Numbered from the stretch's first letter, positions 30,775-47,069 are shown. The stretch: 64,000 nucleotides of DNA from Candidatus Latescibacterota bacterium (GCA_965116885.1 OZ220741.1:4128001-4192000), one strand, 5' to 3'. Program-made: numbers and translations. Notes: a model not told the origin generated them from the sequence alone.

Positions 30775-30808
30775 TATCCGCAGATGTACGCAGATAAAAG
30801 ACGAGAGT

Positions 30809-31789
30809 ATGAACAAGGCTTATGTTGAGCGACGCGATGAAGGCTATTGGATTGTAAATACTCGAGTATCCCTGGATACCATCGTTTATGCTTTTCTGGA
30901 TGGACAATCTCCCGAGAGCATTGCCCAATCGCTTCCTGTACTGACACTTGAACAGATATATGGATCTATTGCATTCTATCTTGCTCACCAGCCAGAGGTT
31001 GAGACATATCTTGAGAGAGCGAAAACAGATTTCGAGACAAAGCGAAAAGCGTCTCGGGAATCAGATCCTGTATTTTATCAGAAATTAGCGGATACACGCG
31101 TCGTCTTGGAACAATTTGCAAATGAGTATGACATGAGCAAAAATTCTGATGATTCTGAAAAGGTTAGTTGGTGGACGAATGGCTGGGAAATTTTTGGGAA
31201 ATTTATGGCTATTGTGACTTGTACTGGTGTAATAGTTACAATATATATAAATCTGTCCCCAAGTGGCCCTGATTTAGTAGGGTATGGTTGGCACACAAGC
31301 TTGTATTATCCACCCCAATTTAAGGCAGCGCACGATAGTCTAAAAAATGTAACCACTTCGCACTACCTATATGATTTCATTGAGGAAAGAGACTCTACTA
31401 TATCCCAAGATTCTTTACAACGTATTGTTTCTGAACTCTCAGATTCGATTCAAGCTATCTTTGAGGAAGACTTTGTCTATTATCGAGGCTATGTGGTCAT
31501 CAAAATACGAAACGAAGGAGATAGAGTAGCATCAGATATTGTTCTCGATATTCCACGTCGCGGAATCGCTCTTATTACTCATCCAGACACAGTCCAATAT
31601 GTAACTCGGGTAGATAGAAATGTGTCCTTGAATAACCTCAGACCAGGCAATATTGTTGAAGTGCAGATCTGGACAGAGCGTCATATATTTACATCGGACG
31701 AAGGCACTCTCCAGATCACATACGATAGAGGGGTCGGGAGTATCTCCTTTAGCAAAGAATTTTCAGGAATGTGGAGAATCTATCGCTGA
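30809..31789 (+). CDS. DUF433 antitoxin-like domain fused in frame to an unrelated TM-anchored domain
   Basis: TRVSLDTIV...GQSPESIAQSLPVLTLEQIYGSIAFY (DUF433); second half starts near MSKNS (ATG 31133) with a TM helix. Confidence 0.75.
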   Translation: MNKAYVERRDEGYWIVNTRVSLDTIVYAFLDGQSPESIAQSLPVLTLEQIYGSIAFYLAHQPEVETYLERAKTDFETKRKASRESDPVFYQKLADTRVVLEQFANEYDMSKNSDDSEKVSWWTNGWEIFGKFMAIVTCTGVIVTIYINLSPSGPDLVGYGWHTSLYYPPQFKAAHDSLKNVTTSHYLYDFIEERDSTISQDSLQRIVSELSDSIQAIFEEDFVYYRGYVVIKIRNEGDRVASDIVLDIPRRGIALITHPDTVQYVTRVDRNVSLNNLRPGNIVEVQIWTERHIFTSDEGTLQITYDRGVGSISFSKEFSGMWRIYR

Positions 31790-31995
31790 CTAGCTCGAAT
31801 ACATCATTTTTCTGGCTGCTTTGTCCTTGTGTGGATTTACTGGTTTACGGGCTAAATAACATAGCGTAAAGCAGGACTAACAAAGGACCTGAAGAGATGC
31901 AAAGACAGGCGGAAACACTACAGATACAAAAGCGTAAAGAGAATTAATAGGGAGGAGTTAGACAGGCTTCTTGCCTAAAGCAAAGGAAATGAATC

Positions 31996-34900
31996 ATGGG
32001 TAAATTTATCCGGATGGGTGTCGATTATCTTGGCTTTCTGTCTAAGCAGCTTGGCGACCTTCGTGGTATAACAACGCTAGCACACGAGCTTATCCAAAAT
32101 GCGGATGATGCGAAGGATGAATCAGGGGCGCTCTCTGCGACACGGATCACTTTTGATATCAATGACGATGCCCTGATTGTTAGTAATGATGCAGTCTTTA
32201 GAGAAATTGATTTTGAACGGATGCAAAATGTAGCCAGTGGTTCAAAACGCAGCGAATCTGGAGTTCGTACTACTGGGGCATTCGGAATTGGCTTTATCTC
32301 TGTATATCAAGTTACGGATAGACCAGAGATACACTCAGCAGGCCGTCGTTGGATCCTCCGTCCTGAAGCAGAAGAAGGCCGACGGATAGAAGAGTATAGC
32401 GATTCTTTGATCACTAAAGATAATGGCACTGTTTTCCGACTTCCTTGGGCTTTTGGGGAATCCGAGGTACGCACAAAACTAAAAGTTCCTCCGGTTGATA
32501 AAGATGCCCCTGATCTGTTTGTTAAGGAATTGAAGAACTCGTTGCCCAAAGCGATTTTATTCCTGAAGAAGCTTGAAAAGATTGAGTTATTTCGAAACGG
32601 CAAACGTGTCATTCAAGTTACAAAAATTAAAAAAGAGAATGTAGTCGAAGTTAATTGTGATGGTGTAAGCCAAAACTGGCGGGTTATGCAGGGAACCTTC
32701 CAAAATGAAGCCCTGGAACTAAAGAAGAAATTCCAATCGTATATTGAGGACAATCGCGAGGCCCAGGTTCAAATTGCTATCCCCGATACACTTCTCGCTG
32801 ATGGATTGCTATTTGCAACATTGCCAACTGAACAATCAACAGGACTACCGTTTCACATAGACGCAGATTTTTTCCCTACTTCTGATAGGAAATCCATTGC
32901 ATTTGAAGACATTAACATTATTGACCACCGATCTGAATGGAACCGTATGGCAATACGGGAAGCCGCATCCGTAATTGAAGCTAATCTGATTCCACTGCGA
33001 AATATGTTCAAAAATGATGCTTCAACATTTTGGGCTATCTTGAACAGTCTAAACCGCATATACCAAGAATACACAAACGACACACAGAAGCCGTTTGCTA
33101 CGTTTTGGAAGGTATTGCATCCATTGCTAAAAGCTTCACAAATCGTTTACACCGAATCAGAAAAATGGCTTACTCCTGACGAGACCCGCATTCCAACAGG
33201 TGAGAAAGAAGAAGAGGCTATCCCTATATTCAAAGCTCTAAACATTGAGATAGTCCATCAAGACCTAAAGAGATATCGCAATATACTGAGAAGCAATGGC
33301 GTAGGTGTGCTGAGAGTCAACGATATTTTTGAATCACTCCAGCACGAAGGATTGACCAAACATCCCAAGTGCGTTCCTTCAGACTTCCAGACTCCTGAGC
33401 AATTGGAACTGCTATGTAGAGGAATTTACGGGATACTTGAAAACACTCAGGGAGAATCAGCAAAGGAAGAAGCTAAAAAATTGTTGCGCCATTGCGCATT
33501 GGCTCCGGGGCTTGACGGACACCTCTGGCCATGTGGTTCAGTTTATCAAGCTGATGAGCACACCCTTAAAATCTTCGCTAATCTGATACCCGCCGATGTC
33601 TCGTTCTTAGCCGTAGAGGGGATACCTTTATTCAAAGAACTCTGTCCTCAATTCAAGGCCGGAAATGCTATTAAAGAGTTAGAGCGTCTGGAGACTGTGA
33701 AACTTCAGAGAGCTTGGAGAGACGACCATTTCGATCCTTCTACTGTGCTTAAATGGTTCGATAGCTATAAGAAAGAGCTATCCGAAAATGAAGAATTACC
33801 CAAAAGACTCGCAAAAATCCCCTTATTCCCATCCGCAGAAAGGCTATGTTCATTGGAAAATTTGTATCTACAGGGAGGATTCTCTGACCCAATAGGAGAA
33901 GCCGATCTTGTGGATATGAGACAACTCAAAGGGCTTTCAGATTTCCTGAAATTTTTGGGTGCCAAAGAACTCACATTCATAAACTATGCAGAACGCTACA
34001 TTCCAAGAGCGTTTGATGCTAATAAGGATACAAGTTTGGAAGCTAAATGCAAGCTTCTGGATATTTTGGCAACCCGCATCGGTGAGGTTCGGGAGAATGA
34101 CTGGCTACGGAATAAGCTCACTGAAGCAAACATCGTTGAATGTACAGACGGTGAGTTTCATCAACCAGAGCAAGTTTACTTCCCTCGCAAAGAAGTCAGA
34201 GCAATCTTTGAGGATTTTGTTCATTATGCCTGCCTTACCAAAAAATCGGAGAGCAGGAAGGACCTCTATCGCTGGCTGGGTATCGCAAGTCGCCCTCGCC
34301 CCTATGACGTATTGCGATTTATCGACAAATTAACGAACAAGCCACCTAATCAAAGCTCCATACAGGTAATAAAGAGAGTCTTGAAGGCTGTAGGGAACGC
34401 CTGGGATAGAATACCTGAAGATGAGAAGCAATCCTATGATCCTCTGAAAAATAAGAAATGGCTCTTGGCCGATGAATCAACTAAAAAATGGTACTGCCCC
34501 AACCAACTATACGCCGCTTACAATAAGAGCCTTTTCGAATCACAGGCGAAGTTTATTGATCTAACCGTACCAATACAGCAAAAAATCCGAGATTTCCTCG
34601 AATACCTGGGAGTCAATCTTAGACCACAGCCCTCTCAAGTGGCTCAACACCTACTCAAGTGCTCCAAACTTGATAGAGAACCCCCGAAAGGCATTTATCA
34701 GTGGCTGAACAATAGTGAGCAATCCCAGGACATCTATAAGTTAAAGAATTTCGCCTGTCTTCGTATCCAAGGTAAATATCTCCGTCCGGACCAAGTCTTC
34801 TGGGGACAGCATTATTTTGGCAGATTCCGCGTCCAATTGGGGACGGACTTTCTATCATATCAGAATCTACTCCAAACACTTGGTATCAAGGAGTCACCCG

Positions 34901-36666
34901 ATTATAGTGATGCATTTGAAGTATTGAAGGACATCTCAACAGCAATAGGCAATAATCGATTGAAGCCAGAGGACAAAACCGTTGTAACCCATTGCTGGAT
35001 CATGCTAACCGAGGCACTCCAAAGCGAACAACTCGATTCAGCAAGCATACAAACTGAATTACATAGTATCCAATGTGTGCCAAATCTTGACAATATATTG
35101 TACCTGCCGTCCAGAATATTCTTTGAAGACCGTCCTCGCCTCGCAGACAAATTCTCTGAACCACTCGAAAAACATACGATTCCACGTAAAGAAGGCATTT
35201 TGCAGGCACTAGAAGCTGCCGGAGTTAGGCCAATCTCAGATATAGTAAGAGGATTTATAGATGAATCTGTAAACTCGCAGGAAGACGAGATGCTGAAGAC
35301 ACGAGTCATAGAGCGTACTGATCTCATTAGAACTATCTCAAATGATACGGTCCAACTTGACAGTATCCGCTTTCTACGCACGAATCAACTCAAGGTAAAA
35401 TGGTCTCTTAAGGACTTTATCCACGACTGGCCGCCTACTTCACCTGAACCGGTCGAGGCCCATTTGGATGGAGATGAGCAGGCTATCTATTTTGTTTTAC
35501 GAAATGGTAATATTCGCCCATGGCCAGCTATTGCCCGTGAATTAACTCAGTTAATCGCTCCAAGGAAGGAAATTGGGGCCATTTCCCCTGGACTTAAGAT
35601 AATTCTGGAAGCATCTACCTACGAAGATGCGGTAGAGCAACTCAATGATTTGGGCATAGCTCTTACTGAAGAACTGAGAAATCTGGCAAAAACAGGAAGA
35701 GTTGCAAAAACATTTGACGAGAAACCTTCCAGTGAAAATCAGGAATTATCCGATTCTTCACAGAATGGAGTAATGTCAAGTAGCGGCATTGAAAAGACTC
35801 ATCAGAATGAATTGGAAGACGAAGATGATGTAAGCGGCCATACATCCGATACTACGTCCAATCCGACTATCTCAGACAGCAATGGTACGGAATATAGCAC
35901 AGAGAATAATAATGAAAAATCAGATGGTATTGATAGAAATGGTCACACCAAAGGAGAACAGGAAGAGAATACCGAAGATGATGTTAAAGATGGCAAAACT
36001 ACGATGACTCGTGATCCGAAAAGCGGACAAACTACAGATAATGTTAAGGATCAGAACAACAGTAATGGTACGAGTCAGAAGGAATCAAATCGTTCAAACG
36101 GACTGAACAGACCGAGACCCGAAACAGGTCGGGCGGCAGAGGATTGGCTCGAAAAAAGGCTCGAACAAGTGTTCCCAAACTGTGTACAACGACATATTAG
36201 AGATAAAGCAAATAGAGAAAGTGATTTTGTTGTTTTATCCGGTAGCTGCAAGTTTCATATAGAGGTCAAACATGTGGCAAATTGGCCAGGAACATTTTAT
36301 TGGTCCGAACTCGAATGTGAAAAAGCTCAACTCCTCGAAGAGAGTAATGATGAATATATTATGGCAATCCTTTCTCCCAACGGAGGCAGAGAGTATAAAA
36401 TACATTGGATCTGGCATCCACTCGATGAATTGAAAAGCGCATCTCGAGAGGTCCAATGGACAGGTAACAGCGATTATGAACTGGTGGACGCCGATTCTTG
36501 GGATGTCGAGACACGGAGACCTGACGAAGTTCCCACAAAACGACACAGATTTCGTATCAAGCTGGACGGCGAAGCCGTCAAGGGATTTGAGGAAGACACG
36601 GGGGGGCTTGAGGCATTGTGCAGAAAGATTGATAGTGTGAATGCTGAGATGGGAATAGAGTCATAA
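31996..36666 (+). CDS. Sacsin-like GHKL ATPase with C-terminal DUF3883/NOV-type PD-(D/E)xK nuclease
   Basis: ELIQNADDA, GAFGIGFISVYQVTDRPEIHS, GTVFRLP, TGLPFHIDADF; C-terminal GRAAE...SDF...IEVK...WSELE. Confidence 0.85.
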   Translation: MGKFIRMGVDYLGFLSKQLGDLRGITTLAHELIQNADDAKDESGALSATRITFDINDDALIVSNDAVFREIDFERMQNVASGSKRSESGVRTTGAFGIGFISVYQVTDRPEIHSAGRRWILRPEAEEGRRIEEYSDSLITKDNGTVFRLPWAFGESEVRTKLKVPPVDKDAPDLFVKELKNSLPKAILFLKKLEKIELFRNGKRVIQVTKIKKENVVEVNCDGVSQNWRVMQGTFQNEALELKKKFQSYIEDNREAQVQIAIPDTLLADGLLFATLPTEQSTGLPFHIDADFFPTSDRKSIAFEDINIIDHRSEWNRMAIREAASVIEANLIPLRNMFKNDASTFWAILNSLNRIYQEYTNDTQKPFATFWKVLHPLLKASQIVYTESEKWLTPDETRIPTGEKEEEAIPIFKALNIEIVHQDLKRYRNILRSNGVGVLRVNDIFESLQHEGLTKHPKCVPSDFQTPEQLELLCRGIYGILENTQGESAKEEAKKLLRHCALAPGLDGHLWPCGSVYQADEHTLKIFANLIPADVSFLAVEGIPLFKELCPQFKAGNAIKELERLETVKLQRAWRDDHFDPSTVLKWFDSYKKELSENEELPKRLAKIPLFPSAERLCSLENLYLQGGFSDPIGEADLVDMRQLKGLSDFLKFLGAKELTFINYAERYIPRAFDANKDTSLEAKCKLLDILATRIGEVRENDWLRNKLTEANIVECTDGEFHQPEQVYFPRKEVRAIFEDFVHYACLTKKSESRKDLYRWLGIASRPRPYDVLRFIDKLTNKPPNQSSIQVIKRVLKAVGNAWDRIPEDEKQSYDPLKNKKWLLADESTKKWYCPNQLYAAYNKSLFESQAKFIDLTVPIQQKIRDFLEYLGVNLRPQPSQVAQHLLKCSKLDREPPKGIYQWLNNSEQSQDIYKLKNFACLRIQGKYLRPDQVFWGQHYFGRFRVQLGTDFLSYQNLLQTLGIKESPDYSDAFEVLKDISTAIGNNRLKPEDKTVVTHCWIMLTEALQSEQLDSASIQTELHSIQCVPNLDNILYLPSRIFFEDRPRLADKFSEPLEKHTIPRKEGILQALEAAGVRPISDIVRGFIDESVNSQEDEMLKTRVIERTDLIRTISNDTVQLDSIRFLRTNQLKVKWSLKDFIHDWPPTSPEPVEAHLDGDEQAIYFVLRNGNIRPWPAIARELTQLIAPRKEIGAISPGLKIILEASTYEDAVEQLNDLGIALTEELRNLAKTGRVAKTFDEKPSSENQELSDSSQNGVMSSSGIEKTHQNELEDEDDVSGHTSDTTSNPTISDSNGTEYSTENNNEKSDGIDRNGHTKGEQEENTEDDVKDGKTTMTRDPKSGQTTDNVKDQNNSNGTSQKESNRSNGLNRPRPETGRAAEDWLEKRLEQVFPNCVQRHIRDKANRESDFVVLSGSCKFHIEVKHVANWPGTFYWSELECEKAQLLEESNDEYIMAILSPNGGREYKIHWIWHPLDELKSASREVQWTGNSDYELVDADSWDVETRRPDEVPTKRHRFRIKLDGEAVKGFEEDTGGLEALCRKIDSVNAEMGIES

Positions 36667-36692
36667 CTCTATCGACTAATGAGGTCCAATAT

Positions 36693-36793
36693 GAGCCGAA
36701 ACTCTTAGGCGGAGATAATGGCCACCAGATTGTCGATCTTTGATGTCCTTCAACTTGAAAGCACGCGGTAGAGATATTCGCAGTTCAACCGGT
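36693..36793 (-). pseudogene. Decayed HI1420-like addiction-module antidote (HTH) fragment, copy A
   Basis: Minus frame reads LNCEYLYRVLSS*RTSKIDNLVAIISA*EFRL; 60/77 nt identical to copy B. Confidence 0.65.
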
Positions 36794-36802
36794 CCTTAGA
36801 AG

Positions 36803-37630
36803 TCAATACTCATTTTCTGCCATAGCTTCTTCTAAATCAGGAATGTCAGGCACAAGCAAAGTCAAAAACTTCCCGTTGTATCCTAACTCGATAACTGATT
36901 CTGTAGCTCCAATCTCAAAGGGTAAATCATCAAACCACTCGTCGAGTGATATGGGGCAGGCATCTTCTTCTTTGCGACCATTGATATAATCATAGGTAAG
37001 GGTGGTTCCTTTTACCGGTTTTTTACTGAGAAAATCCTGTTTATACGTTTCTTTCATACGGTTAGAACGCTGTTCATACTCAATGAGTCCTTCCTCATTA
37101 CAAACCACAAGTGTACAGGCAAGATCTGTAAGTTCTATAAAACGTAGCACAGCGGCATATGACGAAATACCAAAATGCTCAGATAATTCCAATATAGTTT
37201 CCTTCGTATATTCCTTATACCTCATCGCGGTCTGAAATGCTTTCTTGGGAGCTAAGAAACAAATGGCAAAGTAGTCGGCTTCTCGTTCAATTCGCTCTTT
37301 CGACTGAAATTCGCACTTGGATCGATGCAGTCCTGCTGTTTCCAACATTCGCCTGTGCTCCGGAATATTAATGTGTCCCAACTCATGGGAGAGTGTAAAC
37401 CTGTGGAATTTGTTGCTCCAGAAATGGTCACTATTAAATCCAATCAGATAGTTGCCACCTCCCAATGCTTTGGAAAATCCAGAAAAATCATCTCCGAATG
37501 ATTTCTCCAGGTAGCGATATTCAGATTTCTGAATCTGATCAACAATATCTTCGATAACCTCGTTATCACCAATTGCCATGTTTTCCCGAAGTTGGGCCGC
37601 ATGTGCTGCTATTGATTGTCGCAAATTCAT
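36803..37630 (-). CDS. ImmA/IrrE family metallopeptidase (CapP-like)
   Basis: RFTLSHELGH (HExxH), EREADYFA..LAP, LSEHFGIS. Confidence 0.9.
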   Translation of the reverse strand: MNLRQSIAAHAAQLRENMAIGDNEVIEDIVDQIQKSEYRYLEKSFGDDFSGFSKALGGGNYLIGFNSDHFWSNKFHRFTLSHELGHINIPEHRRMLETAGLHRSKCEFQSKERIEREADYFAICFLAPKKAFQTAMRYKEYTKETILELSEHFGISSYAAVLRFIELTDLACTLVVCNEEGLIEYEQRSNRMKETYKQDFLSKKPVKGTTLTYDYINGRKEEDACPISLDEWFDDLPFEIGATESVIELGYNGKFLTLLVPDIPDLEEAMAENEY

Positions 37631-37956
37631 CTTATACCTCTTTTTCTAACCTGTTCGTTCTGCTTTAGTATTACTACATATTCATTAATCTTATTAAGTG
37701 TGTCAGGCGATAAATCCCGTATATTTCGCATTAACAACGTTTTTTCAAACTCTCCTTTATCTTGTCCAGCTAGATCCACTTCGAGTATATTTAAAATCTG
37801 AGCAAACTTGCGAATATTGGCTGGCGTTGGCATTCTTAGACCTTTCTCAAACTGGGAAATCGAAGCCTGAGTCAGCCCTATAGCCCTTGCCAATTCTACT
37901 TGGCTCATACCCTTGTTTATCCGTGCCCTCCTGAGTCGTTCTCCAAATTCTGACAT
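37627..37956 (-). CDS. XRE-family HTH regulator (CapH-like)
   Basis: FGERLRRAR..GMSQVELARAIGLTQASISQFEKG; ATGA overlap with the peptidase gene. Confidence 0.92.
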   Translation of the reverse strand: MSEFGERLRRARINKGMSQVELARAIGLTQASISQFEKGLRMPTPANIRKFAQILNILEVDLAGQDKGEFEKTLLMRNIRDLSPDTLNKINEYVVILKQNEQVRKRGIR

Positions 37957-37973
37957 GACTTTTCTCCTTTTTC

Positions 37974-38056
37974 TTGACGAAATAAATTTATGTGTTATAT
38001 TATAGCACCATCTTATGAAAATTCAAGGGTCAATTCACAACCCATTGTCTTGAAAT
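37974..38056. promoter_or_regulatory. Overlapping divergent promoters with candidate operator palindromes
   Basis: Plus strand TTGACG-16-TATATT; minus strand TTGAAT-16-TATAAT with TG; ATAAATTTAT palindrome; TTCAAG...CTTGAA inverted repeat. Confidence 0.55.
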
Positions 38057-38072
38057 TGAAAGGAGTTGCCTC

Positions 38073-38465
38073 ATGGCTCGCATATTCATCAGTTTCGCGA
38101 TAGAAGACCGAATCCTACGGGATTTTCTCGTTGGTCAGAAACGGAATACACGTAGCCCCATTGTTTTCACTGATTATTCTGTGAAAGAACCGTGGTCATC
38201 AAGATGGAAGACGAATTGTCGCCAAAGAATAAGATCCTGCGCTGGAGTGATAGGAATTATTACAAAACATACATCAAAAGCAGATGGACAATTGTGGGAG
38301 TTGAAGTGTGCGATTGAAGAAAATGTGCCCTCAATTCTCATTCATGGATACAGGGCACCTCAAAAAAGACTATCTATACTCCCCTCAATCATCAGAGGTC
38401 GTCGCGTCAATATCTGGACTGAAGATAACATTGTCAACTTTCTTAACAAGTTCTCAGGGAGATGA
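38073..38465 (+). CDS. TIR domain protein (ThsB/MTH538-like)
   Basis: RIFISF, DYSVKEPW, RIRSC, LWELKCA (catalytic Glu); AAGGAG RBS. Confidence 0.88.
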   Translation: MARIFISFAIEDRILRDFLVGQKRNTRSPIVFTDYSVKEPWSSRWKTNCRQRIRSCAGVIGIITKHTSKADGQLWELKCAIEENVPSILIHGYRAPQKRLSILPSIIRGRRVNIWTEDNIVNFLNKFSGR

Positions 38466-38469
38466 TACG

Positions 38470-39468
38470 ATGAAAAAAGCTCTTATAGTTGGAATTGATA
38501 ATTACGATCCACCCAATGCATTGGGTGGATGCGTGAATGACGCAGTAGAGGTGAGTAGGGTCATAGAAATGAACGAGGATAGATCGCCAAACTTTGATGT
38601 TCGGTACATGATTAGTAGCGAGAGTGGTGTAACTAGCCAAAGGTTAAACGAAGCATTAAAAGAATTGTTCTCTGGTCAAGCAGAAACAGTAATCTTTTAT
38701 TTTGCTGGGCATGGTATCATCGATGATGTGGCCAATGATGGCTATCTAGTTACTCAAGATGGAAGTGAGCCTAATTGGGGTATTTCTTTATCCCATATCC
38801 TCGAAATGGCCAATAATTCTCATCCTAAAATCCAATCTACGGTGATTATTTTGGATAGCTGTAATTCAGGTTTTGCAGGAGAAGTGTCCGGCCTGGGGCA
38901 AGGTGATGCCACCCCTTCAATAATCGGAAATGGCGTGACTATACTGACGGCCTGCCATCGTCAAGGAACAGCGGCAGAGTCAAATGGACACGGAACATTT
39001 ACGTCAATTATTCTGGATGGATTGCGCGGTGCGGCCTGTGATGTCATTGGCCGCATAACGCCAGCTTCCCTTTATGCTCATGTGGATCAGACTCTTGGAG
39101 CATGGGAGCAACGTCCTATCTACAAGGCGAATGTTCAGAGTTTTATCACCCTGCGTGAAGTCAGCCCTAAAGTACCTTTAGAGGTGCTTCGTAGGCTTCC
39201 AGAATATTTTCCGAATTCTTCAGATGTATTCAAACTTGATCCAACTTTCGAACCGGACCGTGGGGAGAAAGCTGACTGTTTGAAGAACATCCCTATCAAT
39301 GAGGACAACGTAACTATCTATCGGGAACTTCAGCAGTGCAATCGTGTCAATTTGGTCGTACCAGTAGGCTATGATCATATGTGGCATGCAGCCGTGTTTT
39401 CAGGAGGGTGCAGACTGACCGCCACTGGAGCCCATTATCGCAAATTAGCCAAACTCAATAGAATTTAG
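38470..39468 (+). CDS. Caspase-like (peptidase C14) protease with C-terminal extension
   Basis: KALIVGIDNY, LGGCVNDA, FYFAGHG (His), ILDSCNSG (Cys), HGTFTS. Confidence 0.93.
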   Translation: MKKALIVGIDNYDPPNALGGCVNDAVEVSRVIEMNEDRSPNFDVRYMISSESGVTSQRLNEALKELFSGQAETVIFYFAGHGIIDDVANDGYLVTQDGSEPNWGISLSHILEMANNSHPKIQSTVIILDSCNSGFAGEVSGLGQGDATPSIIGNGVTILTACHRQGTAAESNGHGTFTSIILDGLRGAACDVIGRITPASLYAHVDQTLGAWEQRPIYKANVQSFITLREVSPKVPLEVLRRLPEYFPNSSDVFKLDPTFEPDRGEKADCLKNIPINEDNVTIYRELQQCNRVNLVVPVGYDHMWHAAVFSGGCRLTATGAHYRKLAKLNRI

Positions 39469-39478
39469 GGAGGTACCA

Positions 39479-39961
39479 ATGCCGATTAAAGTATTCATAT
39501 CGCACAAAGACTCTGATGCAATAATTGCCGAAAGCGTTAACAGACGTATTCGTAGGAATGGACTGGAAACATATCTTGATGTTATCGACGACGCTCTTGG
39601 GAAAGATGGACCAGACCTCGCAGATCATCTTTTAAGTAGGATGGGGGAGTGCCAGCAACTTGTGGCTGTTGTTTCATCCTCCACCAAAGATTCTTGGTGG
39701 GTACCGTGGGAGATTGGTGTCGGCGCAGAGAAGGGATTTCTAATGGCGAGCTTTTCATATAGCCATGTTCAGTTGCCAAGCTATCTTGAAAAATGGCCTG
39801 CTCTTCACTCTGATCGTGATATTGATCTTTATTGCCGATATTCAAGGCGGACAGATGCAGAGATTGGCAGGAGATATTGGCTCACAGAACAACAAAAATT
39901 TTCCCTTCGCAAAGACGAAGCCCTTAATTTCCATAAACAACTACGTACTGCTTTGGGTTGA
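39479..39961 (+). CDS. Second TIR domain protein (TIR_2-like)
   Basis: KVFISHKDSD, SWWVPWEIGVG (catalytic Glu), LPSYL; GGAGG RBS. Confidence 0.88.
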   Translation: MPIKVFISHKDSDAIIAESVNRRIRRNGLETYLDVIDDALGKDGPDLADHLLSRMGECQQLVAVVSSSTKDSWWVPWEIGVGAEKGFLMASFSYSHVQLPSYLEKWPALHSDRDIDLYCRYSRRTDAEIGRRYWLTEQQKFSLRKDEALNFHKQLRTALG

Positions 39962-40137
39962 TAGAGTGTCTGAAGACTACCCGATATCAGGTACTACTGA
40001 ACCATTAATCCCAAGTGCAGGTCCGTCAGAATGGATAAAAAATGAAGGATGATTGACATACTCAAAATCAATTGATTATGCTAAATATCTGGGCAAGATA
40101 AAGTTATGCATCCGAATAGCTTTTCCGTTGTCCTGTA

Positions 40138-40239
40138 CTACAACTTGATACAATCTAACCTCAGCCGAAACCCCAGAGCAGAAATAATAGCCATCAGGTT
40201 GTCGAGCTTCGGTTTGCTGCGACTTGAAAGCACGCGGTA
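40138..40239 (-). pseudogene. 3' fragment of HI1420-like antidote gene, copy B, truncated by IS3
   Basis: Minus frame reads YRVLSSRSKPKLDNLMAIISALGFRLRLDCIKL*; abuts the IS left end. Confidence 0.7.
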
Positions 40240-40294
40240 TGGACTTGACCCGTTTTGGTGGGTACCTTATCAGTAATCAGAAAGGAGCCCTACT

Positions 40295-40606
40295 ATGCCA
40301 CCAACACGTCCACCTTATCCAGCCGAGTTGAAGCACCAAATCATCGAGCTTGTGCGCGCTGGTCGCTCTCCGGCTGAACTGGCCAGAGAGTTTGAGCCGA
40401 CCGCTCAGACCATCCAAAACTGGATACGCCAAGCTGATCGAGATGAAGGACTTCGAGAAGACGGCCTGACCAGTTCTGAGCGAGAAGAGTTGCGTGTTCT
40501 TCGACGTGAGAACAAGCAGTTGCGCATTGAGCGCGAGATACTCTCAAAAGCAGCAGCCTGGTTCGCAGCGGAGACCGACGCGATCCCAAGAAAATCTTCG
40601 CGTTGA
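40295..40606 (+). CDS. IS3 transposase OrfA
   Basis: YPAELKHQII..LAREF HTH; LRRENKQLRIEREILSKAAAWFA. Confidence 0.93.
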   Translation: MPPTRPPYPAELKHQIIELVRAGRSPAELAREFEPTAQTIQNWIRQADRDEGLREDGLTSSEREELRVLRRENKQLRIEREILSKAAAWFAAETDAIPRKSSR

Positions 40607-41454
40607 TAAAAGCGCACCAGGCACTTTGGCCTATCGCCACGCAATGCCGAGTCTTGGGTGTCTCCCTCAGCGGGTATTATGCCTGGCGAGCACGTCCACC
40701 CTCTAAACGAGCAAAGGTTGATGTGGACCTGAAGAAGCATATCGAAGCCTTTCATACCCGATCAGATGGTACTTATGGTGCCCCTCGCATTTGGAAAGAT
40801 CTGATGGATATAGGCATCCTTGTAGGCAAGAAGCGCGTGGCGCGTCTGATGCGTGAGATGGGTATTTGTGGCATAAGCCGCAGAAAGAGCACGCAAACGA
40901 CGTGTAAGGTGCAACAGTCTGATAAGGCTCCCGATCTGGTCAAGCGTGACTTTGCTGTGGCAACGGTCAATAAACTCTGGGTAGCCGACATCACCTACGT
41001 ACCCACTTGGTCGGGCTTCTTGTATCTCAGTGTTGTCATAGATGCCTTCTCCCGCCGCGTCGTGGGTTGGGCAATGGCAACACACCTGCAAAGTGAGTTG
41101 GTCTTGTCAGCTTTGAATATGGCCCTTTACCAGCGTCGTCCCGAAGGCGTGATCCACCACTCTGATCAGGGGGCGCAATATACCTCCATCGCATTTGGAG
41201 AGCGTTGTCGTGAAACTGGCGTACGTCCTTCAATGGGGGTTGCTGGCGACTGCTATGACAACGCGCTGTGCGAGAGCTTCTTCGCCACGCTTGAATGTGA
41301 ACTGATCAATCGCCGATCCTTCCGTACGCACAAGGAAGCCCGCTTGGCTATCTTCTCCTACATTGAAGGATGGTATAATCCACATCGCAGGCATTCTTCC
41401 ATCGCCTACTATGCGCCGATAGCTTATGAAAAACTGCATCTATCACGGGCTTGA
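40603..41454 (+). CDS. IS3 transposase OrfB (DDE)
   Basis: WVADITYV, HHSDQGAQY, DNALCESFF; -1 frame relative to orfA. Confidence 0.95.
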   Translation: MIKAHQALWPIATQCRVLGVSLSGYYAWRARPPSKRAKVDVDLKKHIEAFHTRSDGTYGAPRIWKDLMDIGILVGKKRVARLMREMGICGISRRKSTQTTCKVQQSDKAPDLVKRDFAVATVNKLWVADITYVPTWSGFLYLSVVIDAFSRRVVGWAMATHLQSELVLSALNMALYQRRPEGVIHHSDQGAQYTSIAFGERCRETGVRPSMGVAGDCYDNALCESFFATLECELINRRSFRTHKEARLAIFSYIEGWYNPHRRHSSIAYYAPIAYEKLHLSRA

Positions 41455-41645
41455 TACACAAGCCCTAAACTCTCCACCGAAGCGGGGTAACTCCAATACT
41501 ACTGCTTGACAGAGAGAGAAATAGCTCTATATTTTTTAGAAACTACACTTAAACTTTTCTTTTTTGAAAAGAATTTCACACAAGTTATACTTTCAGTGCG
41601 TGTTGTGAATCGGCGAATATCGGGGACGGGAAGGGAAAATTTAAC

Positions 41646-42161
41646 TTGAACTATCAAAGCCTATACTGGGATGCCTTAATGCAACTCAGGGCCAGTGTTT
41701 ATTATTTACAAGCCTATCAGATACACTCTGAAAAATGGGATAACAGGATACAGATATTTTTGGCTATTACCTCCAGTTCAAGCATTGGTGGATGGGTTAT
41801 TTGGAATGAATATGGCATAATTTGGGGGTGCGTAATTGCCGTCTCACAAGTGATCAATGCCATCAAGGGATTTTTGCCATTTCAGAAACGAGCTAAGCAG
41901 ATCGGGAGCCTTAATACAGAAGTGGAAAAGTTGGCCTTGGATGCAGAAAGCCAGTGGTATTCGGTATTTGAAGGCAAACTTACCGACGAGGATATTTTCA
42001 ACCTCGTCACCAAACTAAAGCAGCAAAAACTGGAGGCATCACACAAGCATTTCAAAGATCAAGCTCTACCGACAAAATCAAAGTACATCACCGAAGCAGA
42101 GGAACGAACAAGGGCCTATTTTCAGACCTATATAAAGGCCTTTACAACAGGAGAGAGTTAA
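41646..42161 (+). CDS. SLATT-like two-TM protein
   Basis: Two hydrophobic helices followed by a helical tail; TTGACA-16-TATATT at 41506-41533. Confidence 0.55.
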   Translation: MNYQSLYWDALMQLRASVYYLQAYQIHSEKWDNRIQIFLAITSSSSIGGWVIWNEYGIIWGCVIAVSQVINAIKGFLPFQKRAKQIGSLNTEVEKLALDAESQWYSVFEGKLTDEDIFNLVTKLKQQKLEASHKHFKDQALPTKSKYITEAEERTRAYFQTYIKAFTTGES

Positions 42162-42162
42162 A

Positions 42163-42396
42163 ATGGCTAAAAAAAAGAATTCCATGAGAAAAGAAGAACC
42201 ATCAGGGAATAGACGGACCTCAGCTACGTCCACTAAGCGAGACACCCGCCTAGTGTTCCAAAGCGAAGATCGGAATATACCTACTTTCGACGTAGGTCTC
42301 CCCATGCCCCAAGCAGCTAAGCCTCCTAAAGAAAGTGATGGAGCAGACTTGTCGCCAAGTCAGAGAGAGAAATCTTCGCCAGAGAAGCCTTCTTAA
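42163..42396 (+). CDS. Small disordered hypothetical protein
   Basis: 77-aa ORF 1 bp after the previous stop, with GGAGAG RBS. Confidence 0.4.
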   Translation: MAKKKNSMRKEEPSGNRRTSATSTKRDTRLVFQSEDRNIPTFDVGLPMPQAAKPPKESDGADLSPSQREKSSPEKPS

Positions 42397-42453
42397 GTGT
42401 ATCTTCAATGCGATGTGTTAATTTAATTTTAGATTGCGTTAATTTTAACAAAA

Positions 42454-42488
42454 GACGGCCTTGAGTATTTGATCACTCAAGGCCGTTT
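42454..42488. terminator. Hairpin terminator
   Basis: GACGGCCTTGAGT...ACTCAAGGCCGTT. Confidence 0.65.
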
Positions 42489-42727
42489 GTGTACTCAAGG
42501 TGGTGCGGTGTAAAACCGTTTGGTGCATCTTTGGATTGACCTGGGTGGCTACGGGATTTGTCAGGCACGGTACACAATTTTTGAGTATAATAATCTTTAT
42601 ACTCAAAAATGACCTTGAAAACCCCTGTTTTTTCGAGCAAATTGCAGATAGACATTTATCATTATATACAAAAAGAGGAGGGGGCGATTCGCCCGGTTCG
42701 ACAGCGCATCTATGGAGACACGACGCG

Positions 42728-42994
42728 ATGAAGAGAACATTGACTATTGACTACGGTAGCGAAGTCCTGCTGGCCCTCGGATATACACCTAAGCAGTTCA
42801 GCGAAGAGGCCAAGATCCTCATCGCCGTCAAGCTCTACGAGTTAGGCCGTTTGTCCTCGGAGGGAGCAGCCAAGCTGGCCGGCATTCCCAAGCCCTTATT
42901 TCTGACAAAGCTCGCCGAATACGGCGTCGATACCTTCCAACTGACTGAGGACGACCTCCAACAGGACTTAGATAGTGCCCGTCGTCATCTGTAA
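42728..42994 (+). CDS. UPF0175 family antitoxin-like protein
   Basis: AVKLYELGRLSSEGAAKLAGIPKPLFLTKLAEYGV..LTEDDLQQDL; GGAGA RBS. Confidence 0.85.
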   Translation: MKRTLTIDYGSEVLLALGYTPKQFSEEAKILIAVKLYELGRLSSEGAAKLAGIPKPLFLTKLAEYGVDTFQLTEDDLQQDLDSARRHL

Positions 42995-43004
42995 TACTTC
43001 TCCA
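42975..43004 (+). pseudogene. First ~10 codons of a DUF3368 PIN toxin, remainder deleted
   Basis: GTG-CCC-GTC-GTC-ATC-TGT-AAT-ACT-TCT-CCA = MPVVICNTSP, overlapping the UPF0175 end as in intact pairs. Confidence 0.6.
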
Positions 43005-43018
43005 GATGGGAAAACAGC

Positions 43019-43627
43019 ATGCATATTTATATTGTATTCGCGCACCCGAGTAGGCGATCTTTTACGGGTGATGTGCTTGTAGAATTTTGTCGTGGGTTGG
43101 AGGATGGGGGCCACTCGTATGAGATAGGTGATTTGTACGAAATGGATTTCAGGACTGATATGAGTCTGGACGAATACAACCGGGAGATGAATGTGTATGG
43201 CAATCGTCCGGATTTGCCCGTTCCCCCTGATGTGCAAGCTGAACATGCAAAGATTGAGAAGGCTGATGGCTTGGTGTTCGTATTTCCAAATTGGTGGAGT
43301 GATTGTCCGGCAAAATTGAAGGGATGGTTTGATCGGGTCTGTGTCTGTGGATATACGTATGTGTATGAGAACGAGGAATATCCGATGTCTGGACTCGAGG
43401 TTGATAGGGCATTGGTCTTGTGTACTGCGGGTCACACATGCGAGCATCTCGAAGAAACCGGTATTTTGGAGAGTATGCGGTGTATTTATCTCAATGATCG
43501 CCTTCGCCCTGAAATAGGCGTGGCATGGACGGATATGGTTGTGTTGGGAGGTATGGGAGAAGTCGAAGAGAGTATAAGGCAGGAGAATCTCGTAAAGGCT
43601 TATCAGTTGGGAAAGGAGTTTTGCTGA
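43019..43627 (+). CDS. Flavodoxin-like NAD(P)H dehydrogenase (quinone) family
   Basis: IVFAHP..SFT, FVFPNWWSDCPAKLKGWFDRV. Confidence 0.9.
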   Translation: MHIYIVFAHPSRRSFTGDVLVEFCRGLEDGGHSYEIGDLYEMDFRTDMSLDEYNREMNVYGNRPDLPVPPDVQAEHAKIEKADGLVFVFPNWWSDCPAKLKGWFDRVCVCGYTYVYENEEYPMSGLEVDRALVLCTAGHTCEHLEETGILESMRCIYLNDRLRPEIGVAWTDMVVLGGMGEVEESIRQENLVKAYQLGKEFC

Positions 43628-43665
43628 AAGTATTCCGTCTATATGTTTGTCCACCAGATATTTAG

Positions 43666-43700
43666 CCCCACAAGTTTAATTGATTTTGTGGGGATTTTTT
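43666..43700 (+). terminator. Intrinsic terminator
   Basis: CCCCACAA...TTGTGGGG-A-T6. Confidence 0.6.
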
Positions 43701-43816
43701 ATTTTTGCTAAACTATTTTTTTTGAAAAACATTTGATGTGTTTGACTGAGCGTCGTATTATTGGGAAAATGAATGTGTGATCGGTAAAGCTAAATTAACG
43801 ACTGAAAAGGTATAAC

Positions 43817-45232
43817 ATGCGCAGAGCGAAAATTGTGAGTACACTCGGGCCCGCGAGTTCTTCGGCGCGCGTGATAGAGCAACTGATTGGGGCGGGGGTG
43901 GATGTTTTTCGGCTCAATTTTTCACACGGCACGCGGGATGAACATGCGGAGAATGTTGGACGCATTCGGCAGATTGCGGATAACATGCAGCGCAGTGTTG
44001 CCATTTTGCAGGATTTGCAAGGTCCAAAAATGCGGGTGGGGAAACTCGCAGAGGATCCGATTGAGTTGAAGGAAGGCAACAGGCTGACGGTGACGACCCG
44101 CGAAGTGCCGGGCGATGCCGAGTGCGTATCGACAACTTATGCGGGGTTGCCCCGAGATGTGAAGCCCGCGGATCGCATTTTGCTCGATGACGGGCATATC
44201 GAGTTGATTGTGCGCGAGGTCTATCGCTCGGATGTCGTGTGTGAGGTTGTGGTGGGCGGGCTGTTAAAATCCAATAAGGGCATCAATTTGCCCGGTGTGC
44301 GTGTCAGCGCGCCTTCTCTGACAGTCAAAGACCGGGAGGACCTGGATCTGGGGATCGAATTGGGTGTGGATTATATTGCACTGTCTTTTGTGCGGGAACC
44401 CGACGATGTGCGAGAGGTTCAACATATTATTGAACGGGCAGAGAAGGAGATCCCCGTTATTGCAAAGCTGGAACGCGCTGAAGCCGTCGATCACCTCGAA
44501 GATATTCTCGATGTTGCCGACGGCGTGATGGTTGCGCGGGGCGACCTGGGCGTGGAATTATCACCTGAAGACGTACCGGTGATCCAGAAACGCGTGATTT
44601 CGGCGGCCAATCGCGCGGGGGTGTTTGTGATTACGGCCACGCAGATGCTGGAGTCGATGACCGATCACCCACGGCCCACGCGCGCCGAGGCGTCAGATGT
44701 GGCCAATGCAATTTTCGACGGCACCGATGCGGTGATGCTGTCTGGCGAGACCGCGATTGGTAAATATCCCGTTCAAACCGTGCAAATGATGGCGCGGATT
44801 ATTGAGAAGGCAGAAGCAAGTGTGGAACTCGCCCCGCCAATTTTAAATCTGGATGCATCGCTCTCTTTCCCAGATGCTATAGGGCAAGCCGCTGCTGCGG
44901 TATCGACTGCGGTATCTCCCAAAGCCATTGTCGCATTTACCCAGTCGGGATCTACAGCGCGTCTGATTTCAAAGCGCAGACCGCGCACGCCGATTATTGC
45001 GTTTACGCCCAGCGAGCGGATATGTCGGCGGTTGTGCTTGTGCTGGGGGGTTGAACCCCGTCAAATTACGCTGATCGACGATACGGATCGCATGGTAGCG
45101 GAAGTTGAAGCGCGTTTGCTCTCTGAGGGCAATGTGCGTTTCGGAGATACGCTGGTGATCCTGGCCGGTGCGCCCATCACGGCGCGTGCCGAGACCAATT
45201 TGTTGAAATTGCATCGGGTTGGGGAAATATAG
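43817..45232 (+). CDS. pyk: Pyruvate kinase
   Basis: RLNFSHG, DLQGPK, MVARGDLGVE, ATQMLESM, RAEASDVANA. Confidence 0.98.
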   Translation: MRRAKIVSTLGPASSSARVIEQLIGAGVDVFRLNFSHGTRDEHAENVGRIRQIADNMQRSVAILQDLQGPKMRVGKLAEDPIELKEGNRLTVTTREVPGDAECVSTTYAGLPRDVKPADRILLDDGHIELIVREVYRSDVVCEVVVGGLLKSNKGINLPGVRVSAPSLTVKDREDLDLGIELGVDYIALSFVREPDDVREVQHIIERAEKEIPVIAKLERAEAVDHLEDILDVADGVMVARGDLGVELSPEDVPVIQKRVISAANRAGVFVITATQMLESMTDHPRPTRAEASDVANAIFDGTDAVMLSGETAIGKYPVQTVQMMARIIEKAEASVELAPPILNLDASLSFPDAIGQAAAAVSTAVSPKAIVAFTQSGSTARLISKRRPRTPIIAFTPSERICRRLCLCWGVEPRQITLIDDTDRMVAEVEARLLSEGNVRFGDTLVILAGAPITARAETNLLKLHRVGEI

Positions 45233-45237
45233 CTCTC

Positions 45238-47010
45238 ATGGGTGAAAAACTGATAGAAAATAAGGTCCTCAAATTGAGGGCCTGTTTTATACTAATCGCT
45301 CTGATGGCTGTTGTGCCAGCTCATGGGCAAACTTTATCTGATGACCCCATTGTGAGATGGCTACACATTTCGGGGCATCGGGCGATTTGGGGGGGAGAAC
45401 TGAAAGCGCTGATGGTCACGCGCGCTTCGCCCTGGTATGATTTTCTTCCCTGGATCCACGCACGCAGACACGATCCTTTGACACTTGCCTCTGATCTGAA
45501 AAAATTGCGAGTATATTACCGAGATTTGGGATATTTGGCAGTATCGGTGCATTCGACTATTGAGCAGCTTGGCCCAGATGAGATTGGGCTGGGGGTACAC
45601 ATTACAGAGGGGCCTTTGACGCGGATTTCCAGAGCGTCAGTAATTGGCGGTGAAGATATCGAGAACGCTTTTGGACAGCTTGAGGGCAAACCGCTATCGA
45701 GCGACCTCGTGAACAAGAGCGTGTCGGAGGCGGTAAGTGGGTTGCGGAACAAGGGCTATGCGTTTGTGCGCGCTGAGGTCGATACGACGATTGTGGCACA
45801 ACAGGCTGAACTCGTTCTAAAACTTGCACCTGGCCCTGTATGCAGCGTGGGCGTTGTGCAAATATCGGGGCACAAAGCCATGGCGGAAAATACGATCTTG
45901 CGCGGTCTCACATTTAAGCCGGGCGATCAATTTAGCGAAGAGGCATTGCAAAACAGCCAGTACCTGCTCTATCGTGCGGGAGTGTTTCGGTCTGTGGCTT
46001 TGGGATTGGCAGATAGCATAGCGCACGGCAATCGGGTAGATGTAGCTTTGCGCGTGTCCGAACGCCCCTTTCGTACGTTGCGCGTGGGCACGGGGTACGA
46101 CACGGATGAAGACTTGTGGGCCTCGGGTGCGTGGACACATCGCAATTTTGGAGGGGATTTCCGTCAGTTTAAGCTGTCTGGGCGCGTTTCCGGAAAGAAC
46201 AGGGAAGCGGTTATCGGCTTGCGGCAGGCGCATTTCAGGGGCAGTCGCAATTGGTTGAATGTCGGTGGGTTTGTGCAGCGCGAACGGCAGGCGGCATTCG
46301 TGCAAGAAGAGGTGGGGGGAAATATATCTATTGAGAGAAATCTTACGAGCGCAACAGATGTGATCGCGCAGTTCAGCGGTGGCGTAGTTGATTTTTCAGC
46401 TGATAGCGCGTTTGCCGAAATGAAGGCCGGATTGCTCAGGGATACGCGTGACGATATTTTTGACCCGCAATCGGGCATGCTCGCAAAACTCACCCTGCGC
46501 GAACGCGGGCGGTTTCTAAGGGCGGACAGCGAATTTTTGCAGGCGACGGCAGAGGGGCGATGGTTTCGTCGCATACCCTTGCGAAGTGTGCTGGCACTCC
46601 GCGTGCAGGGCGGCGTGATTTTTGAACTGGGCAAGGCGGGCGGCGTGCCCAATGTCGAACGGTTTTTTGCAGGGGGGCTCAATAGTGTGAGGGGATGGGG
46701 ATTGAATGAATTGGGACCAAAAGACCAGCAGGGCGAGCCAACGGGCGGTTTGAGCCGTGTGGAAATGAGCATGGAGATTAGAACACAGATATTTTTTTCA
46801 CTGGGTACAGCCGTTTTTGTAGATGTGGGCAATGTCGATGCGAAAGCGGGTGCGTTTAACCTCGGATCGCTTAAGTACGCTGTAGGCGCGGGACTTAGGT
46901 ATTTGAGTCCGGTTGGGCCCGTGAGATTTGATGTGGGCTACCGCCTGTCGGATGATATTACTGTGAAAAAACGAATCCAGTATCACATCAGTTTGGGACA
47001 GGCGTTTTGA
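45238..47010 (+). CDS. Omp85 family (TamA/BamA-like) protein
   Basis: POTRA repeats, RFFAGGLNSVRGW, YLSPVGPVRFDVG, C-terminal LGQAF. Confidence 0.9.
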   Translation: MGEKLIENKVLKLRACFILIALMAVVPAHGQTLSDDPIVRWLHISGHRAIWGGELKALMVTRASPWYDFLPWIHARRHDPLTLASDLKKLRVYYRDLGYLAVSVHSTIEQLGPDEIGLGVHITEGPLTRISRASVIGGEDIENAFGQLEGKPLSSDLVNKSVSEAVSGLRNKGYAFVRAEVDTTIVAQQAELVLKLAPGPVCSVGVVQISGHKAMAENTILRGLTFKPGDQFSEEALQNSQYLLYRAGVFRSVALGLADSIAHGNRVDVALRVSERPFRTLRVGTGYDTDEDLWASGAWTHRNFGGDFRQFKLSGRVSGKNREAVIGLRQAHFRGSRNWLNVGGFVQRERQAAFVQEEVGGNISIERNLTSATDVIAQFSGGVVDFSADSAFAEMKAGLLRDTRDDIFDPQSGMLAKLTLRERGRFLRADSEFLQATAEGRWFRRIPLRSVLALRVQGGVIFELGKAGGVPNVERFFAGGLNSVRGWGLNELGPKDQQGEPTGGLSRVEMSMEIRTQIFFSLGTAVFVDVGNVDAKAGAFNLGSLKYAVGAGLRYLSPVGPVRFDVGYRLSDDITVKKRIQYHISLGQAF

Positions 47011-47069
47011 ATCCGCAGATGGACGCAGATGGAAAAGTCAAAAGCAATGACTGAAAAGGCAGCAGTCAA

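Follow-up and report, generated by a model that had tools for sequence, protein, structure and literature searches.

A stretch of 64,000 nucleotides (nt) from a Candidatus Latescibacterota bacterium (GCA_965116885.1 OZ220741.1:4128001-4192000), hereafter the window, carries a five-gene module in which genes for two TIR-domain proteins and a caspase-like protease diverge from genes for an XRE-type helix-turn-helix (HTH) repressor and a zinc metallopeptidase. The module is most likely a type IV Thoeris-like abortive-infection operon, consisting of TIR1, a caspase-like protease and TIR2, that is controlled by a portable CapH/CapP switch. The literature presents CapH/CapP pairs as portable switches that control many immune operons (Lau et al. 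2022, bioRxiv 10.1101/2022.04.27.489752; Calloji et al. 2026, bioRxiv 10.64898/2026.05.16.725639), and type IV Thoeris is described as the combination of a TIR protein with a caspase-like protease (Rousset et al., bioRxiv 10.1101/2024.10.24.620036; Science 2025). Instead of a new system, the window probably holds a recombination of these two known modules, a type IV Thoeris primed by DNA damage; the rare combination follows from the known shuffling of defense modules. The gene identities, the conserved catalytic residues, the geometry, the conserved promoter and operator, and the recurrence of the pairing in other genomes are the observations that carry this reading.

Organization of the module

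The open reading frame (ORF) list and a check of the sequence place all five genes at the coordinates given in an earlier reading made from the sequence alone (Table 1). They also agree with its description of an XRE-HTH gene and an HExxH ImmA/IrrE-type peptidase gene that are coupled through ATGA, the overlap of the capH stop and capP start codons, and are divergent from the TIR operon over 116 bp. TIR1, the caspase gene and TIR2 can be taken as one operon because the intergenic gaps are 4 and 10 nt and the genes have GGGAG-type ribosome-binding sites. As listed, the caspase ORF begins at a GTG at 38308; the ATG at 38470 is the likelier start since a GGGAG stands ahead of it and the resulting 332 amino acids correspond to the length of its relatives.

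Table 1. Features of the module and its surroundings, in window coordinates
Feature	Position	Strand	Description
capP	36803-37630	-	275 amino acids; ImmA/IrrE-type (M78) zinc metallopeptidase
capH	37627-37956	-	109 amino acids; XRE-type HTH repressor with C-terminal tail
Divergent control region	37957-38072		116 bp
Predicted cargo promoter	37974-38001	+	-35 TTGACG (37974-37979), 16-nt spacer, -10 TATATT (37996-38001); 10/12 consensus
Predicted CapH operator	37982-37998		Inverted repeat ATAA-N9-TTAT between cargo -35 and -10, touching capH -10
Predicted capH/capP promoter	37999-38026	-	-35 TTGAAT (38026-38021), 16-nt spacer, -10 TATAAT (38004-37999); 10/12 consensus
TIR1	38073-38465	+	130 amino acids; short ThsB-type TIR, catalytic Glu E76
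Caspase-like protease	38470-39468	+	332 amino acids; C14 domain with H81 and C131, conserved C-terminal domain of ~110 amino acids
TIR2	39479-39961	+	160 amino acids; other TIR clade, catalytic Glu E78
Tiamat TmtA gene	31996-36666	+	1556-amino-acid sacsin-like ATPase; PADLOC TmtA E=0
Left boundary	36685-36792	-	Remnant of the 3' end of a HigA-like antidote gene, decayed and interrupted by in-frame stops; from direct repeat and translation
Right boundary	40100-40239	-	Another 3' piece of that HigA-like gene; from direct repeat
IS3-family element	40295-41454		Right of TIR2

The regulator pair

Homology models and position support the assignment of the HTH/peptidase pair as a CapH/CapP pair in canonical position. 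Both proteins match their PADLOC models near full length: residues 33-260 of CapP fall on model positions 31-240 of 242 (E 2.6e-38), and residues 3-100 of CapH on positions 6-101 of 103 (3e-14). Broader families are matched as well, namely Peptidase_M78 (PF06114; 1.6e-12) by CapP and HTH_3 (2.5e-16) by CapH. Lau et al. (bioRxiv 10.1101/2022.04.27.489752) place every capH/capP-like pair upstream of the operon it goes with, encoded on the other strand. The window pair has this position, and the CapH/CapP-like identity and geometry proposed in the sequence-only reading are borne out.

The HExxH motif of CapP is H82-E83-L-G-H86. The zinc ligands H82, H86 and E115 and the catalytic E83 are invariant among 28 sequences and align with H96, H100, E129 and E97, respectively, of Thauera CapP, the zinc-site residues reported by Lau et al. 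(2022, bioRxiv 10.1101/2022.04.27.489752). Thauera CapP (PDB 7t5t) is the only solved relative, matched at 4.5e-7 by the single sequence and at 2e-14 by the family profile. A peptidase domain, an HTH-like linker and, at the C terminus, a GAF domain are expected; the PDB profile alignment ends at residue 190. In CapH, R77 does not vary among the eight aligned sequences, and a hydrophobic residue stands before it in each; the very distant CapH proteins of two loci (L051 and L028) described below are among the eight. By analogy with E. coli CapH, which is cut between F82 and R83 and requires the Arg for cleavage (Lau et al., bioRxiv 10.1101/2022.04.27.489752), CapP is predicted to cut CapH between M76 and R77. 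The 5.56-Mb genome holds one capP-like gene and one further weak match (3.1e-4), and a metagenome CapP homologue (P0121) is 92% identical to that of the window. Among 57 close CapP homologues, six (P0130, P0141, P0147, P0148, P0150 and P0152) join the HTH and M78 domains in single proteins of 351-389 amino acids; these are either fusions of CapH with CapP or ORFs called as read-through across the ATGA overlap.

The same architecture raises an alternative, that the pair is an ImmR/ImmA-type mobile-element switch or an Xre/COG2856 toxin-antitoxin-like pair controlling excision or addiction and not defense. Lau et al. describe the M78/HTH architecture as common to ImmA/ImmR (bioRxiv 10.1101/2022.04.27.489752), the pair has weak NCBIfam matches to the 'spr1629 family repressor/antitoxin' and to phage RstR, and distant M78 relatives are plentiful in viral contigs. 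However, the NCBIfam scores fall far under their cutoffs (36 bits against 335 for spr1629), and the best models are those of capP and capH. The close relatives of the pair adjoin immune-type operons, whereas the relatives in viral contigs (80 distant M78 loci) are at most 37% identical; the one viral caspase locus has TIR1 and lacks capP. Moreover, no integrase, excisionase or conjugation gene was seen in the module, no integrase or excisionase was seen among the ORFs of 30000-48000, some of which were searched with Pfam, and the sole mobility gene seen, the IS3-family transposase, lies outside the module. A role in excision or addiction is therefore hardly credible.

Control region and portability of the cassette

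Close capP genes occur in 5 of 167 other genomes of the phylum, always with capH ahead, at CapP identities of 84, 78, 66, 46 and 46% to the window. The genes that these cassettes face differ from locus to locus: small ORFs and a ThiF/E1 protein (L089), a 390-amino-acid protein and a 1183-amino-acid E2-E1-JAB-patatin protein (L090), a DUF6791-ThiF protein (L091), and small proteins, one of them weakly DUF3892-like (L092 and L093). Operons of these kinds (6a, 6e and DUF2188/DUF3892) are among those that Lau et al. associate with CapH/CapP (bioRxiv 10.1101/2022.04.27.489752), and a later paper gives 219 of 544 Bub operons as having CapW or CapH plus CapP. The cassettes of the relatives are, like that of the window, low in GC for their hosts (0.41-0.46 vs 0.48-0.56).

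The control regions of the window and its three closest relatives align with 45 invariant columns. The window, L089, L090 and L091 share the predicted cargo promoter, a TTGAC...TATATTAT block and the operator, and the block common to the window and its three closest relatives reads CTTGAC..ATAA-N9-TTATATTAT. In a reading of the alignments, the same ATAA-N9-TTAT half-sites and spacing follow TTGAC in six loci (the window and all five relatives). Because the closest regulator relatives (66-84% CapP identity, same phylum) share promoter and operator and drive ubiquitination-like (E1/E2/JAB) cargo, the cassette looks portable. Similarity to their control regions extends through the ribosome-binding site as far as the TIR1 start codon, so TIR1 appears to occupy the slot of the cargo's first gene. 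A 31-nt operator/promoter consensus has one match in the 5.56-Mb genome at three or fewer mismatches (control, 0), and CapH therefore looks like a local regulator and not the master of a regulon.

Within the 116-nt spacer of the window, which is shorter than those of L089 and L090 (141-233 nt from gene coordinates), the two predicted promoters stand face to face. The single operator of the window may reflect a deletion that merged two promoters onto one site. A block reading ATTCAA is kept in L089 and L090, and we read it as the -35 of the capH promoter and not as part of a hairpin. A seemingly conserved leader hairpin at 38027-38043 was rejected: RNAalifold finds just 5 pairs at -2.5 kcal/mol among 4 sequences, and shuffled versions of the window leader fold as well as the leader itself in 169 of 200 cases (z +0.95).

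The TIR-caspase cargo

The caspase-like protease matches Peptidase_C14 (PF00656) at 6.5e-16. The match covers positions 56-274 of the longer ORF and stops near residue 220 of the 332, and the remainder is strongly conserved: among 26 sequences, H81, C131 and many columns of the C-terminal third are invariant. As a single sequence the protein has no PDB match, its profile matches metacaspases only, and its one NCBIfam match, to 'caspase, EACC1-associated', falls below the cutoff. The family yielded 6572 matches among 7999 scored candidates; among the 120 matches listed, relatives are 330-333 amino acids long and 63-92% identical, and a metagenome caspase (P0001) is 92% identical. The window caspase is 57-60% identical, over its full length, to those of three Pseudomonas TIR-caspase loci and 42% identical to that of a TIR-caspase pair on an E. 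coli plasmid. The family's catalytic Cys lies at 127-131, and the Glu of the TIR1-type proteins of the three Pseudomonas loci lies, counted on the alignment, at 78/79. PsTIR E79Q and PsCaspase C129A are the mutants used by Rousset et al. (bioRxiv 10.1101/2024.10.24.620036).

The two TIR proteins are not alignable with each other (E 0.26). TIR1 belongs to a TIR family, as 33 of 39 aligned relatives match Pfam ThsB_TIR and the family profile matches a solved 'TIR' chain (PDB 8fz9) at 6.1e-6; its E76 is invariant in 39 sequences. TIR2 itself matches TIR_2 (6.6e-8) and PADLOC ThsB (7.9e-14), and E78 together with S72, W74, P76 and G80 is kept in 33 of 33 sequences.

The cargo was surveyed in 79 species-level loci whose caspases are 42-72% identical, with all ORFs scanned with the window proteins. 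A TIR1 homologue adjoins the caspase in 62 loci, and TIR2 was found in 32. The commonest layout is TIR1-caspase (27 loci), followed by TIR1-caspase-TIR2 as in the window (18), caspase-TIR1-TIR2 (7), TIR2-TIR1-caspase and TIR1-TIR1-caspase (4 each), caspase-TIR2 (3) and other layouts (2). The caspase stands without a detected TIR in 14 loci; an ORF matching Pfam ThsB_TIR lies just upstream in 7 of these, and in 2 others (L011 and L013) 52-129 nt separate the contig end from the start of the caspase match. On plasmids, including those of E. coli, Klebsiella and P. aeruginosa (10 loci of 50 matching records), the caspase or caspase match has a gene of ~125-145 amino acids immediately upstream; 8 of the 10 carry a TIR annotation and 2 are listed as hypothetical.

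A serine recombinase (resolvase) lies within ~2 kb downstream of the TIR-caspase(-TIR) operon in L003, L004, L005, L023 and plasmid loci L268 and L275. It follows the operon immediately in 4 of the 6, and other operons are flanked by transposases of the IS66, IS3 and IS6 types. Small mobile units thus seem to carry the cargo frequently.

The regulation could be as proposed and the cargo nevertheless signal differently from published type IV Thoeris, with the TIRs making different molecules or one of them serving as an NAD+-depleting effector or decoy in place of a second sensor. TIR1 and TIR2 come from different clades, TIR2 is optional and varies in position, and related TIR clusters are described as serving several Thoeris types. 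The catalytic Glu is, however, kept in both TIRs, conservation of the caspase and its C-terminal domain is high at all loci with TIR1, and Rousset et al. argue against PsTIR being an NADase that the caspase activates (bioRxiv 10.1101/2024.10.24.620036). On balance, such a departure from the published signaling is unlikely.

Recurrence of the pairing

Within 2.5 kb on either side of the 79 TIR-caspase operons, 12 ORFs contain HExxH. PADLOC capP is strong in one locus and weak in another. In L051, capP (6.8e-70) and capH (2.8e-28) are divergent from a DUF2188-TIR1-caspase operon; in L028, a short M78 protein of 192 amino acids with an HTH_3 partner is divergent from TIR1-caspase. A hidden Markov model of the CapP family run over all ORFs and a stricter motif scan of the 79 loci gave no additional cases. 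Two further loci were not counted as linkage: L052, where a fused HTH-M78 (RmrA-like) gene lies 2 kb downstream beside a QatC-like gene, and L039, with a PD-Lambda-2_B-like gene. The survey of other genomes suggested by the sequence-only reading thus finds that the pairing recurs, though at 2 of 79 loci it is rare. It appears to be more than chance, since the genome holds one capP-like gene and since L051 and L028 show the divergent geometry again, built from unrelated versions of the components.

Other regulators occupy the same position. A Pfam survey covering 134 ORFs, the closest two upstream at the loci, found proteins with LexA_DNA_bind and Peptidase_S24 upstream of the TIR-caspase operon in L018, L022, L030 and L037, S24 alone in L044 and L074, and a WYL protein in L046. 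A small DUF2188 ORF stands between the regulator and TIR1 in L018, L030 and L046, and L053 has a DUF2188 ORF upstream of the operon with no regulator found. Together with L028 and L051, 9 of the 79 loci have a repressor belonging to a type with known DNA-damage responses. These observations permit the tentative suggestion, possible but open to considerable doubt, that type IV Thoeris is as a rule a damage-primed second-line defense that has recruited unrelated damage-responsive repressors to the same slot: CapH/CapP (the window, L051 and L028), LexA-like S24 proteins, WYL/CapW-like proteins and the published CapK/CapS. If so, the system would need two keys, single-stranded DNA (ssDNA) for expression and a phage cue for firing; the window would be its most compact version, with one operator for two face-to-face promoters; and the cassette would be swapped whole, as far as the start codon of any cargo.

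Genomic island and evidence for and against a functional link

The module lies in a low-GC stretch at ~31000-44000 (GC 0.40-0.46 vs 0.54-0.56 in adjoining 1-kb windows), flanked by genes that, from their translations, we take to be methionine-synthase-like and pyruvate-kinase-like. The order within it is the TmtA gene, capP/capH on the minus strand, the spacer, TIR1-caspase-TIR2 on the plus strand and the IS3-family element. A scan of 25000-48000 gave no tRNA gene, and an Rfam scan of the island was likewise empty. Fragments of a HigA-like gene flank the stretch from capP to TIR2 as direct repeats that are 76% alike and have no further copies in the genome. The HigA-like similarity of the right fragment ends ~55 nt ahead of the first ORF of the IS3-family element, which may have cut the gene. 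The HigA-like gene is intact, at 108 amino acids, in both congener loci examined (L258 and L256), and its DNA stretch is matched in 9 of 20 congeners. In genome G082 it stands beside a flavodoxin-like gene whose counterpart in the window lies at 43019-43627. The site of the HigA-like gene looks like an insertion hot spot.

Such a setting invites the explanation that the adjacency is an accident of a patchwork island, in which CapH/CapP lost an original cargo (for example, a ubiquitination-like one) and merely abuts a TIR-caspase operon that is constitutive or otherwise controlled. The HigA-like fragments that bracket the module, with the IS3-family element after them, are in keeping with an accident. 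So are the other cargo behind all five close cassette relatives, the absence from the window spacer of the second operator copy of L089, L090 and L091, and the caspase itself, which is foreign to the phylum, occurring in 2 of 167 other genomes (41-47% identity) and in none of 20 congeners. However, the similarity to the relatives' control regions takes in the promoter, the operator and the ribosome-binding site and reaches the start codon of TIR1, the consensus scan gives no other promoter-like site between the operator and TIR1, and L051 and L028 have independent CapH/CapP-like pairs in this position. Accidental adjacency is accordingly quite improbable.

Several further points weigh against a CapH/CapP-controlled type IV Thoeris. 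On the regulator side, no TIR or caspase operon lies next to any of the five close CapP relatives, and the linkage is rare among the TIR-caspase loci. None of the 10 plasmid TIR-caspase loci has an ImmA-type gene annotated nearby (50 records match, and the PLSDB gene tables are incomplete), and TIR and caspase homologues are missing from all 80 distant CapP loci that the metagenomes gave, many of those contigs being short. The metagenome matches to the CapP profile are all distant, with a best-segment identity of at most 37% in 77 loci and of 39-45% in three matches that span 69-71 residues. This CapP family does not conserve the cysteine switch: the window has Cys105 where the consensus is Ser, and Cys105 does not align with C113 of Thauera CapP. 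Lau et al. find the switch in just 134 of 408 CapPs (33%), hence it is not obligatory (bioRxiv 10.1101/2022.04.27.489752). The promoters are called from consensus matches, and a consensus scan of the whole 3.9-kb region gives 12 sites against 6.9 ± 2.4 in shuffles. With one operator in the window and two in L089, L090 and L091, where the second lies further downstream, regulation in the window may differ from that of the relatives or be leaky. The patchwork of gene fragments and insertion sequences also makes a recent junction of the module possible. On the cargo side, TIR1 alone has no Pfam match at E<=0.01 and reaches 0.0028 against PADLOC ThsB, and no solved or curated type IV Thoeris protein was matched in PDB or NCBIfam. 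Membership in type IV Thoeris is thus set by matches of architecture, residues and a chain of homologues, and not by the tested proteins of Pseudomonas sp. 1-7.

Other genes of the island were noted in passing. The TmtA gene is convergent with capP, 137 nt apart, and directly ahead of it lies a gene for a 326-amino-acid protein with a DUF433 N-terminus (30809-31789). Just past the IS3-family element, at 41646-42396 (+), are a 171-amino-acid weakly SLATT-like protein (PADLOC RTasSLATT 0.0012; NCBIfam SLATT_4 0.0012) and an overlapping basic ORF of 77 amino acids. SLATT genes are described as TIR partners in other systems. At 42500-42994 (+) lies an ORF with UPF0175 in its C-terminal half (8.8e-23), whose true start is probably well inside the listed ORF.

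Proposed mechanism and implications

If published relatives are a guide to how CapH represses, how ssDNA activates CapP, where CapP cuts, which signal molecule is made and what the protease cleaves, the module would work as follows. A CapH dimer bound to the one ATAA-N9-TTAT operator, which overlaps both promoters, would repress the TIR-caspase operon and capH-capP alike. Upon DNA damage or phage replication, ssDNA would activate the CapP peptidase, which would cut CapH before R77 in its dimerization tail; CapH would then leave the DNA, and the operon would be expressed. One or both TIRs would sense phage and turn NAD+ into a cyclic ADP-ribose signal (N7-cADPR in studied systems). This signal would activate the caspase to cleave many proteins after arginine and stop the infection. 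DNA-damage control of the TIR-caspase operon, as the sequence-only reading had it, stands as the best reading because the CapH/CapP pair is canonical and its promoter and operator are conserved with close relatives; induction itself we infer.

If this mechanism holds, type IV Thoeris joins the cargo controlled by CapH/CapP. The module would also offer a clean natural case of why some cell-killing defenses stay silent until DNA damage, the protease being toxic and promiscuous; slight toxicity of the E. coli operon upon induction is reported by Rousset et al. (bioRxiv 10.1101/2024.10.24.620036). The comparison with the relatives also makes concrete what a regulator swap between defense systems carries along: genes, promoter, operator and ribosome-binding site travel as one unit. 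The finding refines known biology and opens no new class.

Comparison with known systems

The sequence-only reading ranked the module as the best candidate for a new system in the window. That ranking does not hold up, given that a TIR protein with a caspase-like protease is type IV Thoeris, that CapH/CapP is portable, and that another damage-responsive regulator, CapK/CapS, has already been reported on type IV Thoeris. In agreement with its remark that this regulator-effector pairing is not known as characterized, a CapH/CapP-type IV Thoeris pairing is not reported in the passages of the papers found by full-text search. In the available text of the CapH/CapP literature, Thoeris appears only as an example of a protease effector or as CapK/CapS cargo.

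Compared with known CapH/CapP systems, the window shares the coupled genes upstream of and opposite to the cargo, an XRE-HTH repressor of ~107-109 amino acids with a C-terminal tail and a hydrophobic-Arg site, and an M78 HExxH peptidase of ~275-290 amino acids; an operator in the cargo promoter is predicted. Its close relatives adjoin E1/E2/JAB operons, as published. The window differs in its cargo, as TIR-caspase operons are absent from the cargo list in the available text of Lau et al., and in having no conserved cysteine switch. The predicted operator is found between -35 and -10, in contrast to E. coli MS115-1, where the site is described as upstream of -35 (Lau et al.), and CapP is by estimate ~30% identical to Thauera CapP over the aligned part.

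With type IV Thoeris, the window shares a C14 protease with a His/Cys dyad and an adjacent short TIR with a catalytic Glu, the positions of the catalytic Glu and Cys (compare PsTIR E79 and PsCaspase C129), and a defense-island, mobile context. Unlike that system, it has three genes, with a second TIR of another clade after the caspase, and a dedicated divergent regulator pair.

The principle of a metallopeptidase that cleaves an HTH repressor after DNA damage is also described for DdrO/IrrE of Deinococcus and for ImmR/ImmA of ICEBs1 and phage phi105. DdrO/IrrE governs a repair regulon with many sites, whereas the operator pattern of the window is single in its genome; ImmR/ImmA controls element excision, whereas no excision genes were seen near the window pair. 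Closest in logic is CapK/CapS, reported as the DNA-damage regulator of type IV Thoeris in 12 cases (EMBO J 2026, PMC13373217), where a damage-responsive repressor system likewise lies just upstream of the operon. There, a kinase phosphorylates a STAS-wHTH repressor, whereas in the window a peptidase is predicted to cleave an XRE repressor.

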